From: Minisyncoccota bacterium
GTDB taxonomy: Bacteria; Patescibacteriota; Minisyncoccia; Phycocordibacterales; Phycocordibacteraceae
Length of the DNA stretch: 64,000 nucleotides
Assembly (NCBI GenBank): GCA_041664265.1
Contig: JBAYLD010000001.1
Span: forward strand, 134,358 to 198,357
Direction of reading: 5' to 3'
Part shown: in pieces, positions 9,497-60,620 of the stretch
Layout of the letters: every line of letters starts with the position of its first letter
Numbering within the stretch: position 1 is the first letter of the stretch
Translations under genes and position numbers: made by a program
The notes under the pieces: generated by a model
What the model was told of the DNA's origin: nothing
Databases searched by the model: none
Seen by the model: the letters and a program-made list of their open reading frames with translations, nothing else

Positions 9497-10264
9497 TGTG
9501 GACACCGGGTGTCTACAAAAGATTTGCGAGTTAGTATGAGGAAATGGGGTACCGAGAAAACATGACGAACTCTTGTGTGCATGCATACAACCGTGGAGTA
9601 AAGAAAATGCCTATCTTCCGAGAAAAGAACGACCTGTTGCGCCTTTTTAATAGCCTGTACTACTTCAATACCACACAAACGATGCCAGAGAACTGGATCC
9701 GCGATGTTATTAGAGAAGGTGGAATGCAAAAATTAGTGTGGCCATCTATATGGGAACCACGCGAACCGCTAGTTTCAATTCTAGCATGCACTATAATGCC
9801 AAACCATTTCCATTTACTACTTAAAGAGAAAATCGCGGGCGGTATAAGTAAATTTATGCACCGCGTCAGTATGGGATATTCAAAATTCATCAACGAGAAA
9901 TATACCGAGAGTGGTAGTCTCTTCCAAGGCGCTTACAAGGCAAGGTGTATCGATGACGATGCAGATTTAAAAAATCTTGTTGCATATATCATGATAAAGA
10001 ATTCCTTCGAAACATACCCGGGAGGATTGGAGAAAGCGTACAAAGAATTTGACCAGGCTTACGACTACGCGCTTGACTACCCGTTAACCAGTCTTGCCGA
10101 ATACACAGGGAAAAGAAAGCCGGCACTATTAGATCACAATCTCCTACGAGAGTTATTTGAAGAACCAAAATCATTCAAGGAATTCGCTCGCGATTGTATG
10201 CAAAATCGCTTCGAGCAAATGAATGATTATAGTTTCGAGAAAGTGTAGACACCGGGTGTCTACA
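9497..10264 (+). mobile_element. IS200/IS605-family (RAYT-like) element 1, bounded by palindromic hairpins
   Basis: Left hairpin tgtggacaccgggtgtctaca (9497-9517) and right perfect palindrome tgtagacaccgggtgtctaca (10244-10264) flank a Y1 HuH transposase gene. Confidence 0.6.
9544..10248 (+). CDS. Y1 HuH transposase, IS200-like / REP-associated tyrosine transposase-like
   Basis: 234 aa. HuH motif MPNHFHLLL. Downstream Tyr region SGSLFQGAYKARCIDDDADLKNLVAYIMIKN resembles the RAYT WQRRYxxHxIRDE region. Confidence 0.65.
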   Translation: MGYRENMTNSCVHAYNRGVKKMPIFREKNDLLRLFNSLYYFNTTQTMPENWIRDVIREGGMQKLVWPSIWEPREPLVSILACTIMPNHFHLLLKEKIAGGISKFMHRVSMGYSKFINEKYTESGSLFQGAYKARCIDDDADLKNLVAYIMIKNSFETYPGGLEKAYKEFDQAYDYALDYPLTSLAEYTGKRKPALLDHNLLRELFEEPKSFKEFARDCMQNRFEQMNDYSFEKV

Positions 10265-10465
10265 CCTCACAAATATCCTTATCTTATACCGACCGGATGT
10301 GGATAAGAATATTGAGGGAAATAAAAAAGCCGCGAGAGACGGGAGTAATTGCCTTATCGCTTTCCTCCACTAACAACGTCCTCGCGGCTACTTCAGTGTC
10401 CACCAGGAGACTTACTCCCGGCAAAGAGCCGGGTCCGGCCGAACCCGAACTCTATTTACAAAATA

Positions 10466-17914: not shown

Positions 17915-18040
17915 CAGAACTGCGAGTCTGACTCGCAGTTCTCGTGACTTGGACATCCGATGTCCAATTTGGTACCCTACTCTCCGGACGCTATTTGCTA
18001 CAGAACTGCAGTTAAACCTAAAAGAAAGAGGAGGTGCATC

Positions 18041-18733
18041 ATGGCACGGAAGCTAGTCACGCAGTACGAGTTTGACATGTTGGGGGCGGCACTTAAACAG
18101 GAGGGGTGGCAAGTTGAATCCCAATATTCGGGAGACGATCCTGAGCCGATAATGCTCAACATTGTCGACTTTCGGCTCGTCCCCTTCGACACAGGGAGAG
18201 TGACCCTCTCTTTGACTCTCCAAGAGGAAGGAGACGGTTTTAAGGAGAAAATCGAAATGGAAGTCAAGAGGGTCTTTGCCGAGGGGAAACTCGGCATCAT
18301 CACTTGTGAAATGCGTCGATTCAGTATCGCGGTTCGAAATCTGCCAAAGCAGTATCGTCCGAACGCGCGTGCAGGATTCGGATATTGGCGCGTACTTGAA
18401 TCGAGAGACTTCGGCATTCGTTTCACACGGAGCAAGGCCGCTGCGCCGGGGTGGCCCCTATACAAGCACCTCCAGCACCACCAACATCCGACGTACGGAT
18501 TTGAGGAACATCAACGCCAGTATGGAAACGGTGAGAACCTGCTTCGAACCCCAGATCTAGCACAACCACGAGCACTGCAGGTCGGCGACAGGCTCGCGAC
18601 GGGAGAACAAGTACTTTCTCCTCCGAGGAGGGGGTACAACAGCTCCGTCCTGATTCATATCGGAGACAAAGAACATAGCTGTTGGATCAGCGTTGCACCT
18701 CGGCTTCCGATTGCCCTGACTCCCCGATTATAA
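18041..18733 (+). CDS. Hypothetical protein
   Basis: Start set at MARKLV after a strong SD aagaaagaGGAGGtg. No recognisable domain. Confidence 0.4.
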   Translation: MARKLVTQYEFDMLGAALKQEGWQVESQYSGDDPEPIMLNIVDFRLVPFDTGRVTLSLTLQEEGDGFKEKIEMEVKRVFAEGKLGIITCEMRRFSIAVRNLPKQYRPNARAGFGYWRVLESRDFGIRFTRSKAAAPGWPLYKHLQHHQHPTYGFEEHQRQYGNGENLLRTPDLAQPRALQVGDRLATGEQVLSPPRRGYNSSVLIHIGDKEHSCWISVAPRLPIALTPRL

Positions 18734-30395: not shown

Positions 30396-31255
30396 GTGAA
30401 AAGGAGATTGTAGTGCTCTACCATGGCGGCTGCCCCGACGGCTTCAGCGGCGCCTATGCCGCGTGGAAGAAATTCGGCGATACAGCAGAATATATCCCAT
30501 TAAAACTACATGCCCGGCCGGTCCCTGAAGGACTCGCGGGCAGGCGGTTATTTTTCATTGATTTCACCTATCCGCAGGACATCATGGACGAGATCGTGAG
30601 GACCGCCGCATCGGTCACCGTTCTCGACCATCATCGAGGCATACAAGAAGTGGTTGAACGCATGCCCGAACATGTCTTTGACGAGAAGCGGTCCGGTGCG
30701 ACCATCGCGTGGAGCTACTTCCATCCGGACACTCCTGTTCCCGTTCTGCTGAGATACGTCGAGGATGGCGATCGGTACGTCTTCCAGCTCCCGGATTCTC
30801 GCGCAGTGCTCGCCTATGCCTATACACAAAAATTTACGTTTGAAGCATGGGACCAGTTGGTACAAGAGTTTGAAGATGAAAAGACGCGTGCGACATTGCT
30901 GGAGAAAGGAAAAGTGTATGCAGAGCATTTTGCCATTCTGGTCGGGCAGATCGCCAACAAAGCAAAGCTTGTGTCGTTTGAAGGCTTCACGTGCCCCCTC
31001 GTCTCTGCTGCGGACATGTTCACTTCTGATGTGGGGAATCGGCTCGCACAAGAGCGCCCGCCGCTCGGCATCGTGGTCAACTTCCGCGAGGATGTCCTCC
31101 ATGTGTCGCTCCGGAGCACTCCCGACCTGGATGTCTCGATCATCGCGCAGAAGTATGGCGGCAATGGCCACCCGCAAGCCGCCGCATTCAATGTCGCCTG
31201 GGGTTGCCCGCTCCCTTGGACCGTTTTAGAGGAACATGAGAATCCTTGCCGTTGA
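30392..31255 (+). CDS. DHH-family phosphoesterase (NrnA-like)
   Basis: Start at MSEKEIVVLYHGGCPDGF, ATGA overlap with rlmB. DHH motif VLDHHRG. Confidence 0.55.
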   Translation: MSEKEIVVLYHGGCPDGFSGAYAAWKKFGDTAEYIPLKLHARPVPEGLAGRRLFFIDFTYPQDIMDEIVRTAASVTVLDHHRGIQEVVERMPEHVFDEKRSGATIAWSYFHPDTPVPVLLRYVEDGDRYVFQLPDSRAVLAYAYTQKFTFEAWDQLVQEFEDEKTRATLLEKGKVYAEHFAILVGQIANKAKLVSFEGFTCPLVSAADMFTSDVGNRLAQERPPLGIVVNFREDVLHVSLRSTPDLDVSIIAQKYGGNGHPQAAAFNVAWGCPLPWTVLEEHENPCR

Positions 31256-32534
31256 AACCTCTTGTGACGAGACTGCCATCGCGATTCTTGAATGCAGTGG
31301 CGACCCCTCGGCAGGACTCGGGACAAGTGAAAACGCGACCTGTACCGTGCTCGGGAACGCGCTCCTCTCGCAGATAGACCTGCACAAGCAGTATGGCGGC
31401 GTCTTCCCCGCGCTCGCCAAACGTGAGCATGCGAAGAATCTCGTGCCGATCCTCGAAGCGGCACTTGAGGAGGCGGAGTGTGTTCGGAAAGGAAAACAGA
31501 TGATATCTGATGGGCTGTTGGCCGAAGTTGAGGCTATGTTGGCGCGTGAGCCCGGCCTTACCGAAGCCTTTTTCGCTTTTGTCTCTGAATGCGAACCGCC
31601 AGCGATCGACGCGATTGCGGTTACCGCGGGTCCCGGACTTGAGCCCGCGCTCTGGGTCGGCATCAACTTCGCGAAGGCGCTCGCTCTCGTATGGCAGAAG
31701 CCGCTCGTCGCAGTGAATCATATGGAGGGACATATTCTCGCTGCCATCGCGCAAAGAACACAAGGAGACACCTCGCCTTCGCGAGGAGTCACCTTGCGCA
31801 AATCCGAAACAGAAAAATTAGAAATTAAAAATGTACAATTTCCAATACTCGCACTGCTGATATCCGGCGGACATACCCAACTTGTGCTGATGAAAAAATG
31901 GCTTGAGTATGAGCTCGTCGGCGAGACGCGCGACGATGCCGTCGGCGAGGCCTTCGATAAGGTCGCGCGCATGCTCGCGCTCCCCTATCCGGGCGGGCCA
32001 GAGATCTCGCGCCTCGCTGAAGAAGTCAGACAGGAATGTCAGGACATCGGAAGTCCCACATCAGATGTGGGACTTCCGATGTCCCACACATGGGCGAAAC
32101 TGCCGCGGCCGATGATTAACGAAAATAGCTGCGACTTCTCATTTGCAGGATTGAAAACCGCGGTGTTGAACCTTTTGAAAAAGGTCCCCGATATCCGCGA
32201 CGAAGACAAGAAGCATATCGCCCACGAGTTCGAAAACGCCGTCACTGACGTATTGTGGAAGAAGACTGCGCGTGCGCTCAAAGAGACGGGAGCCAAGACG
32301 CTCGTCATCGGCGGCGGCGTCTCGGCGAATACTCATATCAAACGCACCTTCCGAGAAAACATCGCTCAAGAATTCGGGAATATCGATCTTCGCATACCGA
32401 AGGCGAGCCTCTCGACCGACAACGCCATCATGATCGGGCTCGCCGGCTACTATCGCGCCTTACGCGAAGAAGTTGTCCAACCTTCCGACGAACTCAAAGC
32501 AAACGGTAATCTCTCTCTCGCAAAAAAGCCCTGA
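31236..32534 (+). CDS. tsaD: tRNA N6-adenosine threonylcarbamoyltransferase TsaD (Kae1/Gcp), carrying in-frame insertions
   Basis: 432 aa. MRILAVETSCDETAIAIL, HMEGHILAA, VIGGGVSANTHIKR. It is about 90 aa longer than typical TsaD. The insertions coincide with palindromic repeats at 31763-31794 and 32042-32084. Confidence 0.85.
   Translation: MRILAVETSCDETAIAILECSGDPSAGLGTSENATCTVLGNALLSQIDLHKQYGGVFPALAKREHAKNLVPILEAALEEAECVRKGKQMISDGLLAEVEAMLAREPGLTEAFFAFVSECEPPAIDAIAVTAGPGLEPALWVGINFAKALALVWQKPLVAVNHMEGHILAAIAQRTQGDTSPSRGVTLRKSETEKLEIKNVQFPILALLISGGHTQLVLMKKWLEYELVGETRDDAVGEAFDKVARMLALPYPGGPEISRLAEEVRQECQDIGSPTSDVGLPMSHTWAKLPRPMINENSCDFSFAGLKTAVLNLLKKVPDIRDEDKKHIAHEFENAVTDVLWKKTARALKETGAKTLVIGGGVSANTHIKRTFRENIAQEFGNIDLRIPKASLSTDNAIMIGLAGYYRALREEVVQPSDELKANGNLSLAKKP
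32042..32084. repeat. 43-nt perfect palindrome inside the tsaD coding sequence
   Basis: ggacatcggaagtcccacatc a gatgtgggacttccgatgtcc. Both strands encode DIGSPTSDVGLPMS. Confidence 0.8.
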
Positions 32535-47333: not shown

Positions 47334-47420
47334 AAAAATAAGTGCTGGTGATGCTATTCAGTGATAATACTGTCTAGTATACCGCCTCACCCAGTCGCTC
47401 AAGCCTCTATCCCCACATTT

Positions 47421-48231
47421 CCGTAAGGTGTCCGTAAGGTGTCACCTTACGGAATCAATAAAACGCTAGAAACCGTAAGGTGTCACCTTACGGAACATGC
47501 TACTATTACCGAATATGACAAAGAGAGACGTCCCGTTTGCTGTCGGGGAGTGGTACCACTGTTATAATCGTGGCATTGAGAAGCGTATCGTATTTGAAGA
47601 TATTCGAGATTATCACCGCTTCCTTGAGCTCCTTTATTTGGCGAATGATGAGTTTCCTCTCCGGCGTGACGATATCGGCCTATATAAATTTGAAGAGATA
47701 TTAAAGGTTCCTCGCGGCAAGAAATTAGTCGCTATTGGAGCATTCTGCTTGATGCCAAACCACTTCCACTTAGTTTTGAAAGAGGTTGTGGATGGAGGCA
47801 TTACCGCATTTATGCGGAAAATCGGGACGGCATATGCTCTGTATTTTAATGCACGGCACGGACGGACGGGAAACCTGTTCCTCAAGCCGTTTCGATCCCG
47901 CCATGTATCTACCGATCGCTACTTTCAGCACCTTATCAATTATGTGCACTGTAACCCAGCGGCGCTCTCTGAACCCGAGTGGAAAACCAGCCATGTTGTG
48001 GACCCTCAGTTCTTGGGAGAACAAATCGCCGCATACCCGTATTCAAGTCTTGGTACCCATGCGGGCGCACACACGCCGACCAGCGCTATCCTAGACGCGG
48101 AGGTGTTCTCTCTAGCGCGTACGGTTCAAATACAAAAGATGCTACAGGAAGCGCGACAGTATTATGCTGATTCCGACCTTTCCCTTCCGTAAGGTGTCAC
48201 CTTACATCTGCTGTAAGGTGACACCTTACGG
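47421..48231 (+). mobile_element. IS200/IS605-family (RAYT-like) element 2, with hairpin doublets at both ends
   Basis: Perfect palindrome ccgtaaggtgtcaccttacgg at 47432-47452 and 47473-47493 (left). Related hairpins at 48187-48205 and 48213-48231 (right). These differ from the element 1 hairpins. Confidence 0.65.
47497..48192 (+). CDS. Y1 HuH transposase, IS200-like / RAYT-like (paralog of 9544..10248)
   Basis: 231 aa. YHCYNRG, HuH MPNHFHLVL, Tyr region GNLFLKPFRSRHVSTDRYFQHLINYVHCNP. Confidence 0.65.
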   Translation: MLLLPNMTKRDVPFAVGEWYHCYNRGIEKRIVFEDIRDYHRFLELLYLANDEFPLRRDDIGLYKFEEILKVPRGKKLVAIGAFCLMPNHFHLVLKEVVDGGITAFMRKIGTAYALYFNARHGRTGNLFLKPFRSRHVSTDRYFQHLINYVHCNPAALSEPEWKTSHVVDPQFLGEQIAAYPYSSLGTHAGAHTPTSAILDAEVFSLARTVQIQKMLQEARQYYADSDLSLP

Positions 48232-48248
48232 AATGTGGTATAATAAGC

Positions 48249-48592
48249 GCGGACCGGGCTAAGCGATCGCTGGCGGCGTAACGCGCCGACTAGAGGAAAG
48301 TCCGAACATGCGCTCGCTGCAAGGTGAGCAAGAAAGGTAGCGGGTAACGCCCGTCGTCCGTGAGGATAGAGGTGACCACAGTGACGCCAAAACCGAGAGG
48401 TGAAGGGTTCCCTTCGGGGAATAATCTCGCCGCAAGACGAGGGTGCAACGAACAAATCCTTACCCGCATGCAAGGCCGTGTCCCGAGTCCGCCAACTGGT
48501 GGACGAGGGAAGTGCCGCTTGATCCTGAGAGCAATCGAAGGGCTAGATAAATGATCGCTCACGACAGAATTCGGCTTATCGGCCCGGTCCAC
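48249..48592 (+). ncRNA. rnpB: RNase P RNA, bacterial type A
   Basis: P1 pairing: 5' GGACCGGGC with 3' GCCCGGTCC. Conserved GAGGAAAGTCCGAACA (P4 5' strand), GGTAACGCCCG, and 3' region GGCTAGATAAATGATCGCTCACGACAGAATTCGGCTTATCGG, which closely matches E. coli M1 RNA GCCUAGAUGAAUGACUGUCCACGACAGAACCCGGCUUAUCGG. Confidence 0.85.
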
Positions 48593-48597
48593 ATACA

Positions 48598-57137: not shown

Positions 57138-57716
57138 CTAGAATTGCACTTTGACCGGTTCGTTAGCTGCTTTATCTGACTCTGCAAGCTCGAAGAGATC
57201 CATCAGAGAGAAGCCGAATAGAGAGGCGATGATGTTGCCCGGGAATGACTGGATCGTGGTGTTGAGCGCCATCACGGTCGTGTTATAGAAGCGACGCGCG
57301 GCCTGGATCTTGTCTTCGGTATCGCCGAGCTCTTGCTGGAGCTGGAGGAAGTTCTGATTCGCTTTCAAATCCGGATACGCTTCTGAGACGGCAAAGAGCG
57401 TTTTTAAGGCGCCCGAGAGCTGATTCTCGGCCTGTACCTTGTCGGCAGTGCTGCCCGGCATCGAACTCGATGCCCCCATCGCAGCCGCACGCGCCTTGGT
57501 CACATTCTCAAACGCGCTTGATTCGTGTGCGGCATAACCCTTGACGGTCTCAACAAGATTCGGGATAAGGTCATAGCGGCGCTTCAACTGCACGGCGATA
57601 TCAGCCCATGCCTCCTTCGCGCGGTTGGTAAGCAACACGAGACGGTTAAAGGCGAACACGACCCAAAGCACGATTATGGCAACAAGAGCGAGAAGCACAA
57701 TGGTGGTGGTAGACAT
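57138..57716 (-). CDS. lemA: LemA-family protein
   Basis: Start set at MSTTTIVLL. AWADIAVQLKRRYDLIPNLVETVKGYAAHE is typical of LemA. Classic htpX-lemA pairing. Confidence 0.75.
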   Translation of the reverse strand: MSTTTIVLLALVAIIVLWVVFAFNRLVLLTNRAKEAWADIAVQLKRRYDLIPNLVETVKGYAAHESSAFENVTKARAAAMGASSSMPGSTADKVQAENQLSGALKTLFAVSEAYPDLKANQNFLQLQQELGDTEDKIQAARRFYNTTVMALNTTIQSFPGNIIASLFGFSLMDLFELAESDKAANEPVKVQF

Positions 57717-57738
57717 ATCTAGAAGTATACTACAAAAA

Positions 57739-59925
57739 ATGAACATGGAAGACACTCTCGAGAAGCACTTCACGCGGCTTAAGCCGGAGCAGAAGCGGGC
57801 GCTGCATAAGCTAAAAGTTCGCACGATACGCGACCTGCTCTATCACTTCCCCGCTCGCTATGAATCAGCCGGCCAGACAGTGACTATTGCCGGTATTTCA
57901 GCGGGTGCCGAGGTGACGCTTTACGGCACCATCAGGAAGCCCGATGTGCGGAAGACGTGGAAGAGCCGCCGCCCGATCGCCGAGGCGTGGCTCGAGGACG
58001 CTTCGGGCAAGATCAAGATGATGTGGTTCTCTCAGCCCTACATCGCCAAGACGCTCCATGACGGTATGGTGGTGAAGGTGAGCGGGAAGGTAGCGGGAGA
58101 AGGCACCAAGATCTATTTGGCAAATCCAGCGATTGATAAGTCACCTATCGCGCCTGATGCGGCAATTGACTCGCTCTTCACGAGCCGAGGAGACACCTCG
58201 CAGCGAGGAGTCACCTCAGCTCTGTATCCGATTTATCCCGAGAGCCAAGGTGTCTCCTCGCTCTGGTTCTTGCACGCGGTGAAGAAAATATTTGAGACGG
58301 GAGTGCACGAAGGCATTGAGGACCCAATCCCGCCTGAGATCCTTGCACGCTACAATTTGCCATCGCTCTCTGCCGCACTCGTGTTTATACACGCACCGAA
58401 GAAGCTTTCTGATGCCGCGGCGGCGCGCAAGCGCTTCGCCTTTGAAGAAATCTTCGCGCTTCAAATACGAATGCAACAAAATCGGCAATGTCGCAGTGAG
58501 GAGAGAGCCCTGGCAGTAAACGTGGACATAGCGGCGAGACGCCGCGTCAACGACTTCATCGCCTCGTTCCCCTTCCCCGCCACGGCCGCACAGACGCAGG
58601 CGATCGAAGCAATCGTCGCCGACTTCGAGAAATCAAACCCCATGTTGCGACTCCTCGAGGGCGACGTGGGCAGCGGTAAAACTGCCGTCGCCGCCGCGAC
58701 CGCTTATTTGGTGGCGACATCACTACCTCGCGGGCGGATCGCCGGCACACTCCAAGTCGCGTATCTCTGCCCCACCGAGATCCTCGCCAAACAGCACTTC
58801 TCTACCTTCGTCTCATATTTTAAAGACCACCCCATCCCAATCGGCCTTATCACCGGGAGCGAATGCCGCAAGTTCCCTTCTCGCGTGCGGTATGAAGAAT
58901 CCGCCAAGCTCTCGAAGGCGGCGTTTAAGAAGATGGTGGCGAATGGCGAGATCCCGATCGTCATCGGCACGCACGCGCTCATCGAGAAGTCGCTCGCCTT
59001 TAAATATTTTGCCTATGCGATCGTCGACGAACAGCATCGCTTCGGCACGGCGCACCGACAGAAGCTCGTTATGAAAGGTGATGTGGCCCCTCATTTACTC
59101 TCTATGACCGCGACGCCGATCCCGCGCACGCTCGCGCTCGCGCTCTATGGCGACCTTGATCTCACACTCCTCGACGAGATGCCGGTGGGTAGGAAAAAGG
59201 TCATTACCGAGGTACTGGGCTCAAAAGAGCGCGAACGCGCCTACGAGCGCGTTCGCGCCGAACTCGCCCTCGGCCACCAGGCGTATGTGATCTGCCCCCG
59301 AATAGACGAGCCTGACCCGGCCAAAGAGCTCGCGCTCCAAACCAAATCGGTAAAGGCCGAAGCGGCACGGCTCCAAAAAGAGGTCTTCCCTGAAGCAGTT
59401 ATAGACATCCTACACAGCAAGATGACGCCAAAAGAGAAGGAGGACGTGATGAAAGAATTTGAGAATGGAAAAATAAATATCCTCGTTGCAACGTCTGTAG
59501 TAGAAGTGGGTGTGAACGTCGCGAACGCGACCGTGATCCTTATTGAGGGCGCCGAACGATTCGGGCTCGCCCAGCTGCATCAGCTCCGCGGGCGAGTGAT
59601 CCGCTCGATCCATCAGTCCTACTGCTTCGCCCTGCCCGAGTCGAGCGGCGAGACCACGCGCGAGCGAATGAAAGCGTTTATGCAGGCGAAAAACGGCTTC
59701 GAGCTCGCCGAATATGACCTCGCGCTCCGTGGTGCGGGCGAGCTCGCGGGCGGCAAGCAGTGGGGTGTCTCTGACATCGCGATGGAGGCGTTAAAGAATA
59801 TTAAATTGGTCGAAGCCGCTCGCACCGAGGCGGCGACCCTCGTCGCCGCCGATCCCGACCTTAAAAACCACCCCGCCCTCTCCGCTCGCGCCGCCACGGC
59901 GGATAAAGAGATGCATTTAGAGTAA
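57739..59925 (+). CDS. recG: ATP-dependent DNA helicase RecG, carrying an in-frame palindromic-repeat insertion
   Basis: Start set at MNMEDTL. Walker A GDVGSGKTAV, DEQHRFG, wedge/OB N-terminal domain. The 79-nt inverted-repeat element at 58185-58263 encodes SRGDTSQRGVTSALYPIYPESQGVSS. Confidence 0.85.
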   Translation: MNMEDTLEKHFTRLKPEQKRALHKLKVRTIRDLLYHFPARYESAGQTVTIAGISAGAEVTLYGTIRKPDVRKTWKSRRPIAEAWLEDASGKIKMMWFSQPYIAKTLHDGMVVKVSGKVAGEGTKIYLANPAIDKSPIAPDAAIDSLFTSRGDTSQRGVTSALYPIYPESQGVSSLWFLHAVKKIFETGVHEGIEDPIPPEILARYNLPSLSAALVFIHAPKKLSDAAAARKRFAFEEIFALQIRMQQNRQCRSEERALAVNVDIAARRRVNDFIASFPFPATAAQTQAIEAIVADFEKSNPMLRLLEGDVGSGKTAVAAATAYLVATSLPRGRIAGTLQVAYLCPTEILAKQHFSTFVSYFKDHPIPIGLITGSECRKFPSRVRYEESAKLSKAAFKKMVANGEIPIVIGTHALIEKSLAFKYFAYAIVDEQHRFGTAHRQKLVMKGDVAPHLLSMTATPIPRTLALALYGDLDLTLLDEMPVGRKKVITEVLGSKERERAYERVRAELALGHQAYVICPRIDEPDPAKELALQTKSVKAEAARLQKEVFPEAVIDILHSKMTPKEKEDVMKEFENGKINILVATSVVEVGVNVANATVILIEGAERFGLAQLHQLRGRVIRSIHQSYCFALPESSGETTRERMKAFMQAKNGFELAEYDLALRGAGELAGGKQWGVSDIAMEALKNIKLVEAARTEAATLVAADPDLKNHPALSARAATADKEMHLE
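58185..58263. repeat. Intragenic palindromic repeat in recG (GGAGACACCTCGC family)
   Basis: ccgaggagacacctcgcagcgaggagtcacctc...ccaaggtgtctcctcgctc. 12-14 bp terminal inverted repeats. The core is shared with tsaD 31763-31794 (aggagacacctcgccttcgcgaggagtcacct). Confidence 0.6.
59869..59918 (+). repeat. 50-bp perfect direct repeat, copy 1 (3' end of recG)
   Basis: caccccgccctctccgctcgcgccgccacggcggataaagagatgcattt. Identical copy at 60464-60513. Confidence 0.9.
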
Positions 59926-60513: not shown

Positions 60514-60545
60514 GGAATAAATATGGACTTACGATGTCCATAACT

Positions 60546-60620
60546 TGGTACGCCCAGAGGGACTCGAACCCCCAACCAATCGCGTATAAGGCGACTGCTC
60601 TACCATTGAGCTATGGGCGT
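60546..60620 (-). tRNA. tRNA-Ile (anticodon TAT), CCA encoded
   Basis: Reverse complement ACGCCCATAGCTCAATGGTAGAGCAGTCGCCTTATACGCGATTGGTTGGGGGTTCGAGTCCCTCTGGGCGTACCA. Anticodon loop CTTATAC. A1-U72 acceptor pair. Confidence 0.75.

Follow-up and report, generated by a model that had tools for sequence, protein, structure and literature searches.

The stretch of DNA analysed here (the window) comprises 64,000 nucleotides (nt) of contig JBAYLD010000001.1 from a Minisyncoccota bacterium of the Patescibacteriota, and its tsaD gene (31236-32534, plus strand; 432 amino acids (aa) including the stop) contains a 43-nt perfect palindrome at 32042-32084. The gene was assigned by a Pfam TsaD match (E 3e-78), by matches to TsaD structures in the PDB and by an AlphaFold2 model. 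The palindrome is made up of two 21-nt arms, GGACATCGGAAGTCCCACATC (32042-32062) and GATGTGGGACTTCCGATGTCC (32064-32084), which are 100% complementary and lie either side of a single A (32063), in agreement with an earlier sequence-only reading of this DNA. The evidence reviewed below suggests that the palindrome is the core of a REPIN, an inverted doublet of repetitive extragenic palindromic (REP) units, carried in frame within an essential gene.

The tsaD palindrome is the second-longest inverted repeat of the 64-kb window, which holds eight hairpins of score ≥14 as compared with none in 374 kb of shuffled sequence. An 83-nt piece containing the palindrome is predicted to fold at -45.2 kcal/mol as RNA (z -7.4) and at -29.3 kcal/mol as DNA (z -8.3). 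No third copy of the 21-nt arm was found in the window at up to three mismatches (0.01 expected). Searched against Rfam, neither the whole window (gathering score) nor the interval 31900-32250 (E limit of 1) yielded a relevant match at the palindrome, the only sub-threshold matches being to miRNA hairpins and RsmY at 19-29 bits where 57-136 bits are required. Scanning of viral contigs with the centre pattern of the element gave no matches and hence no sign of phage carriage.

Read in the tsaD frame, the palindrome encodes the 14-aa peptide DIGSPTSDVGLPMS (residues 270-283) within the stretch ...QECQDIGSPTSDVGLPMSHTWAK..., while an open reading frame (ORF) on the minus strand (32039-32308) ends in the identical peptide. 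The coincidence had been remarked on previously and is real, although it carries no additional information, because a symmetric palindrome with its centre base at a third codon position gives the same peptide from both strands. In comparison with the Escherichia coli protein (4wq5_A), the segment from ...RLAEEVR to LPRPM is 18 residues longer, close enough to the insertion of about 17 aa that had been proposed, with residues 266-287 standing in place of residues 191-193 of the Aquifex chain (8iey_A). Solved TsaD structures from other clades do not contain the 270-283 segment. The AlphaFold2 model (111 relatives) has a mean predicted local distance difference test score (pLDDT) of 88.7 and a predicted TM-score of 0.89, and its target-normalised TM-score against TsaD crystal structures is 0.88. 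In this model no secondary structure is present over residues 270-283 and pLDDT drops below 50 at 273-279, such that the element is modelled as a disordered loop running from helix 253-269 to the conserved strand region at LPRPM. This is in keeping with the suggestion that the insertion is tolerated in a loop, and most likely the element does nothing for the TsaD enzyme. Further low-confidence stretches at 28-31 and 179-189 are both clade-specific insertions.

Alignment of 62 members of the family revealed a common doublet architecture, (A/G)ATGT-n-GGAC-n7-GTCC-n-ACATC-n-GATGT-n-GGAC-n7'-GTCC-n-ACAT, with arms of up to 27 bp and a total size of 55 nt. Each arm of the doublet is itself a small hairpin with ATGT/ACAT tails, the REP unit, of about 25 nt (ATGT-n-GGACnT-nnn-AnGTCC-n-ACAT). 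Subfamilies differ chiefly in the 7-mer (for example ATCGGAA, ATCGGAT, GTCGTAC, GTACGAC, ATATCAT, CTCGGAG or TTCGTAA), with a change in the 7-mer always mirrored in the opposite arm. In the window the left unit (32036-32062, plus strand) reads ATGTCA-GGACAT-CGG-AAGTCC-CACATC, with a degenerate outer stem, and the right unit, its inverted copy (32064-32090, plus strand), reads GATGTG-GGACTT-CCG-ATGTCC-CACACA, with conservation extending to about +26 from the centre (GTCC-n-ACAT). The units each contain an A·A mismatch (GGACAT-CGG-AAGTCC) and are less well paired than the long 21-bp stem, which is perfect. The 15-nt core of the left unit, GGACATCGGAAGTCC, is identical to the REP beside a RAYT-like gene (REP-associated tyrosine transposase) on the related contig L094. 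Many units contain GTAG (ATGTAGGAC) or CGTC (GGACGTC). No conserved target motif or tetranucleotide was found in the flanks of the 62 aligned elements, many of which occupy orthologous rather than independent sites.

Public metagenome contigs were scanned for the 21-nt centre GTCCNACRTCNGATGTNGGAC, giving at least 116 stretches, and the counts for the family that follow are among the matches listed. Extension of these matches gave 122 sites with 53 full doublets, 52 of them inside ORFs of at least 150 aa and the remaining one in an ORF of 147 aa. A single frame, x-D-x-x-x-P-T-S-D-V-G-x-x-x-S, is read in 52 of the 53 and is free of stops in all of them. The frame bias is not due to stops alone, because the same P-T-S-D-V-G frame is used by all doublets with three open frames (9/9) and by all with two (28/28). 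The host ORFs fall into 16 clusters, TsaD among them, and with many doublet sites orthologous, independent events number closer to 16 than to 53. Ten hosts were named by Pfam, namely a SAM-dependent methyltransferase, transketolase (N-terminal domain, transketolase_N), GluRS, DNA polymerase III delta', tRNA-guanine transglycosylase (TGT), PheRS beta, a ZIP transporter, a Mur ligase, TatD and UvrB, with DnaE, RecJ and ArgRS further recognised by eye. In all, a dozen or more housekeeping genes other than tsaD carry the element in related bacteria. The methyltransferase, transketolase, GluRS, holB, dnaE, tgt, murC, tatD, uvrB, recJ and argS genes were not found in the window. In other genomes, at least six different genes (L082, L084, L086, L094, L144, L152) carry the subfamily present in the window, GGACATCGGAAGTCC[C/T]ACATC-n-GATGT[G/A]GGACTTCCGATGTCC, the peptide type of which is DIGSPTSDVGLPMS.

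Some hosts carry more than one insertion. In the TGT ORF of L152 there are two doublets, WDIGSPTSDVGLPMS and MGFVNPTSDVGFTKP, both in frame but each from a different subfamily; where the second of them lies, L193 has a third subfamily. A DnaE-like ORF of 1523 aa on L147 contains an in-frame doublet together with what appears by eye to be an intein-sized insertion (...FNKCLTADTRI to ...LIVHNSH).

The REP unit is associated with transposases. Two IS200-like Y1_Tnp ORFs are present in the window (47497-48192 and 9544-10248; 29% identical to each other), and these and the related transposases pass the Pfam Y1_Tnp model at 24.7-37.8 bits (cutoff 23), being about 220-230 aa in length with visible HUH-like (HYHLL/HFHLV) and Y-x-H-x-NP motifs. 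Homologues of the window proteins directly adjoin the retrieved hairpins on seven contigs (L113, L132, L140, L149, L160, L165, L176), where the hairpin beside the gene, TGTCC[A/G]ACATC-n-GATGT[T/C]GGACA, is the one at the centre of the in-frame element. The transposase gene of L126 has ATGTAGGACGT-CGT-ACGTCCTACAT on both sides, and an inverted doublet of this flanking unit lies in frame in a transketolase ORF 4 kb away. On L094 the transposase gene has ATGTGGGACATCGGAAGTCCTACATG on both sides, containing the exact 15-nt core found in the window including its mismatch, with a doublet in transketolase and further singlets on the same contig. Within its 12.8 kb, L094 has five REP-bearing sites, all of a single subfamily. 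The RAYT-flanking unit of L150 is TTAGGACATC-G-GATGTCCTAA. One L094 singlet, GGACATCGGAAGTCC at 3752-3766, is even carried in frame by the RAYT-like transposase ORF that this unit flanks.

The tsaD palindrome is therefore read as a REPIN, two inverted REP units of about 25 nt placed head to head, mobile and carried in frame as a passenger, to which we assign a probability of about 0.8. It is identified as an inverted REP doublet because its unit flanks RAYT-like transposases, in L094 with the exact core, and copying within genomes is indirectly supported because one centre mismatch is common to the two L177 copies, which occupy different host sites, and the L094 sites belong to one subfamily. 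The suggestion of a mobile in-frame hairpin reminiscent of the Rickettsia palindromic elements (RPEs) holds in that the same 43 nt are found in other genes, but the closest kind is the REPIN rather than RPE-1.

Y1 transposases of the IS200/IS605 and RAYT type act on hairpins in single-stranded DNA. By analogy with these Y1/HUH enzymes, a cognate RAYT would recognise the REP hairpin on single-stranded DNA and would cut and rejoin beside it, moving or copying the doublet in trans. In compact genomes most insertions would be expected to land in genes, and the survivors would be those that keep the frame and fall in permissive loops, with the surviving frame giving a peptide rich in Gly, Ser, Pro, Thr and Asp and never containing a stop.

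Among species representatives, genome bins of Paceibacterota and Kaiserbacteria come closest (46-69% identity), and in a set of 120 relatives of the TsaD protein the segment from PYPGGPEISRLAE..R to LPRPM is hypervariable. Nearly every close relative has some palindrome or remnant at this site, and in many of the 70 DNA loci that could be read it is a long perfect or near-perfect palindrome of differing sequence, while relatives with a basal 29-residue linker are mostly without a hairpin. L001 has a 22-bp arm and the sequence found in the window except for one compensated C>T/G>A pair and the centre base; L004 (20 bp) and L005 (21 bp) are of the GGACGTCGTACGTCC type; and the palindromes of L014 (26 bp), L018 (25 bp), L021 (19 bp), L027 (28 bp) and L042 (25 bp) are unrelated to it in sequence. 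L197 and L199, the closest of the relatives at about 75% identity, carry the element at the same codons with one uncompensated C>A change (Pro to His). The sequence-only reading had taken orthologs of unrelated clades with the peptide and without the palindrome as the mark of an ancestral protein feature; the relatives that share the peptide (L001, L197, L199) all keep the palindrome. The window and L001 share 93% identity over the element (third positions 79%), as compared with 69% (third positions 40%) over the remainder of tsaD. When 111 TsaD relatives were placed in a neighbour-joining tree after masking of the loops, the tree was star-like with loop types intermixed, such that repeated insertion and replacement are inseparable on it.

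The persistence of palindromes at the tsaD site could also be explained if the hairpin were a functional structure selected within tsaD, either in the mRNA or as a DNA cruciform, acting as a site for RNase III or other processing, a ribosome pause or a protein-binding site. The relatives that keep long palindromes of differing sequence, the compensated pair in L001, the much greater conservation of synonymous sites within the element than elsewhere in tsaD and the very stable fold are all consistent with this. The same sequence is found in many unrelated genes and beside transposases, however, and is therefore not specific to tsaD, while among 45 distinct doublets there is no sense-strand excess of G·U (8 G·U against 30 A·C mismatches). 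Given in addition the many relatives with a 29-aa linker and no hairpin, and no Rfam family at threshold, selection for a hairpin function in tsaD is considered unlikely.

Still less probable is the formation of the palindrome in place, by replication template switching or quasi-palindrome correction from local tsaD sequence with no mobile element involved. Palindromes that overlap conserved residues or bring no net gain in length are found in some relatives (L012, L017, L037, and L014 with 53 nt for +10 aa), as this process would predict, and in L022 and L023 the tsaD linkers have identical 10-bp arms (ACTTGGCGGT / ACCGCCAAGT) with 3-nt loops, TTC and GAA, that are reverse complements of each other. 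The latter shows that flipping at the DNA level occurs at the tsaD site, as though the tip of the hairpin had been inverted. For the element in the window, template switching is contradicted by arms that do not derive from neighbouring tsaD sequence, by the identical 43-mer in at least six other genes of other genomes and by the half-unit flanking the L094 transposase gene, although it could still help to keep the arms perfect. An assembly artefact, or an ancestral protein segment with accidental palindromy, can be set aside with near certainty in that, while spurious inverted joins are possible in metagenome assemblies, the exact protein is recorded in NCBI, JGI and ENA as a metagenome-assembled TsaD on two contigs, the independent assemblies L001, L197, L198 and L199 each carry this element at the corresponding position of an uninterrupted tsaD ORF, the chance expectation is negligible and the TsaDs of other clades are without the segment. 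Translational bypass of the element was also considered and is unlikely, with the strictly kept frame and the stop-free frame in use arguing for plain translation.

A number of observations weigh against the REPIN interpretation. Copy number in the window is low, with one doublet and two singlets, and none of its RAYT genes is flanked by the tsaD type of REP, its two RAYT-like genes carrying other REPs. The only NCBIfam match of the transposases is REP_Tyr_transpos at 34-40 bits, below the cutoff of 80; paralogues are several to a contig, and the REPs on either side of the L094 and L126 genes run in direct orientation. As such the transposases may be closer to IS200-like transposons than to classical single-copy RAYTs. 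Among the tsaD relatives no pair of empty and filled sites was found, and the fact that, in comparison with L001, the element is much better conserved than tsaD outside it would equally be consistent with a constraint on the hairpin. That the element is translated is deduced from the continuity of the ORF. A further difficulty is that at orthologous sites in tsaD, transketolase, GluRS, polymerase III delta', TGT and other genes different subfamilies are present in different genomes, each internally perfect, with the methyltransferase site behaving likewise (L006, L010, L014, L019 and the metagenome set). This is unexplained by simple one-off transposition.

Slow divergence into subfamilies would need many paired changes, and independent insertion at orthologous sites would need strong targeting. 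Proposals that fit better are that elements may re-insert at a target regenerated by precise excision, that they may be replaced in place by the dominant subfamily of the genome, or that one arm may be corrected against the other. More tentatively, these may represent a REPIN lineage specialised for the genes of the ultra-compact Patescibacteria, in which one frame is always open and gives a harmless flexible loop, and in which a Y1 transposase re-targets or replaces copies at the same permissive sites; on balance this is doubted rather than favoured. If true, it would explain the different perfect subfamilies at orthologous positions in TsaD, transketolase, GluRS, TGT and polymerase III delta', and such a lineage would be a systematic source of lineage-specific insertions in the housekeeping proteins of these bacteria.

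Elsewhere in the window, a search with the unit pattern GGACnTnnnAnGTCC gave four matches where 0.1 were expected, these being the two tsaD arms and sites at 17951 and 60525. The presence of two solo units bears out the idea of a small repeat family with GGACATC/GATGTCC ends. The first, TTGGACATC-C-GATGTCCAA (17949-17967, no strand assigned), is intergenic and resembles the RAYT-flanking unit of L150. It lies 3' of a separate terminator-like hairpin (17916-17944), and of the double hairpin at 17917-17967 that had been linked to the palindrome it is only the second stem that is related, the first being the unrelated terminator-like stem. The predicted ATG of the ORF at 17960-18733 falls in the right arm of this unit, and either the start is misplaced or the REP unit overlaps the translation start. 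The second solo unit, ATGGACTT-ACG-ATGTCCAT (60523-60541, no strand assigned), is separated by 8 nt from the 3′ end of a minus-strand tRNA gene (60549-60620), and a single nt distinguishes it from the core of the right arm in tsaD.

Both Y1_Tnp ORFs of the window are flanked by REPs of their own. For the 47497-48192 ORF the unit is CCGTAAGGTG-T-CACCTTACGG (47431-47494 and 48185-48233), with two and a half copies upstream (47420-47494) and an inverted doublet with 22-bp arms downstream (48185-48233), its end lying 18 nt short of the RNase P RNA gene (48251-48594). The palindrome at the tsaD site of L018 is built from a unit near-identical to this REP (GTAAGGTC-A-GACCTTAC). The 9544-10248 ORF is flanked by GT[G/A]GACACC-G-GGTGTCTAC units (9498-9516 and 10243-10265), present as GTGGACACC-G-GGTGTCTAC at 9498-9516 and as GTGTAGACACC-G-GGTGTCTACAC at 10243-10265, the unit starting with GTAG like classical REPs.

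The tsaD genes of this clade hold further palindromic sequence, with palindromic DNA present in some lineage in at least three of the four extra segments. A perfect palindrome with 16-bp arms, CGCGCGCCAAAATTTC-T-GAAATTTTGGCGCGCG, encodes RAKISEILAR within another clade-specific TsaD insertion (L003 10260-10292; L006 2431-2463; L008 10165-10197; L022 10020-10052), with compensated differences between species and only a remnant of the right arm, near 31540, retained in the window. Separate long perfect in-frame palindromes occur within single tsaD genes, three in L042 (1172-1987) and two in L064 (5335-5609), of sequence families unrelated to that of the window. In the window, tsaD (31764-31795) and a recG-like ORF (57625-59925, at 58187-58262) share the in-frame motif GGAGACACCTCGC-(CTTC|A)-GCGAGGAGTCACCT; in the recG-like ORF an inverted AAGGTGTCTCCTCGC closes it at a distance of about 45 nt. 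Its arms, GGAGACACC / GGTGTCTCC, are one compensated base from the REP flanking the 9544 transposase, and the tsaD copy lies in the second low-confidence insertion (residues 179-189).

The REPIN interpretation extends REP/REPIN-transposase systems to the candidate phyla radiation, where they have apparently moved from intergenic DNA into essential reading frames. It provides a concrete origin at the DNA level for some of the unexplained extra loops in the conserved proteins of these organisms and cautions those who annotate genomes or predict structures that loops of this kind are passengers. With the same codon-level sites filled time and again by different subfamilies, there is a route to studying target choice by Y1 transposases and whether copies are replaced in place, while perfect hairpins in essential mRNAs are a natural test of the secondary structure that translation tolerates in these organisms.

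Among known systems, bypass elements such as the T4 gene 60 gap and the yeast mitochondrial 'byps' are hairpin inserts that need not keep the frame and often hold stops. The element described here is similar as a short hairpin-forming insert in essential coding sequence but differs in that the frame is strictly kept. In common with IS200/IS605 elements, a Y1_Tnp protein is flanked by hairpins on the same strand (L094, L126) with several paralogues per genome; unlike these, the left and right hairpins are identical and the best curated match is the RAYT model. Miniature derivatives of IS200/IS605 are characterised by left and right subterminal hairpins that are distinct from each other and by insertion 3′ of a fixed tetra- or pentanucleotide. 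RPE-1 is an imperfect palindrome of about 100-150 bp that forms a repeat family in Rickettsia with copies similar in sequence, and for which we know of no transposase. PMC3733652 mentions RPE-1 as a palindromic repeat carried in frame in protein-coding genes that are likely still functional. This element is likewise an in-frame palindrome in coding genes, but is 43-55 nt, perfect, composed of two REP units, linked to a Y1 transposase and found in Patescibacteria.

The REPIN concept and RAYT-REPIN systems are introduced in earlier work (PMC3116915; bioRxiv 10.1101/2022.05.22.493013; PMC8049555). As in the REP/REPIN-RAYT systems of Pseudomonas and E. coli, the unit is a short imperfect hairpin (REPs being about 20-40 nt), two inverted units form one long hairpin, the unit flanks a Y1/HUH transposase (L094, L126, L150, L165, L113 and others) and there are dispersed non-autonomous copies. 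Unlike classical REPs, which are extragenic and often present in hundreds of copies, all 53 listed doublets are in ORFs and local copy number is low; the transposases differ in falling below the NCBIfam RAYT cutoff and in having several paralogues per contig. REP singlets and dimers within known genes have been reported in Opitutus terrae and Rickettsia conorii (RPE-4, RPE-6); those that are dimeric or grouped code for 20-30 aa, uvrB is one of the replication and repair genes in which many of them lie, and loops or linkers were suggested as neutral sites (Di Nocera et al., 2013; PMC3733652). In the same study GTAG- and CGTC-tagged REPs were mostly intergenic, with the CGTC repeats having no associated transposase (PMC3733652). 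The intragenic REPs of Opitutus and Rickettsia are matched here by the presence of UvrB, DnaE, polymerase III delta' and RecJ among the hosts. In contrast to the REPs of that study, the doublets here are essentially all intragenic, the unit is transposase-associated, GTAG lies within the stem rather than as an unpaired tag, and orthologous sites recur across genomes with different subfamilies. For the Patescibacteria or the candidate phyla radiation, searches of the literature gave no account of either in-frame palindromic elements or REP/RAYT. While intragenic REP dimers are thus already known from Opitutus and Rickettsia, what is new is the Patescibacteria host, the near-wholly coding location, the use of a single frame and the recurrence of orthologous sites.

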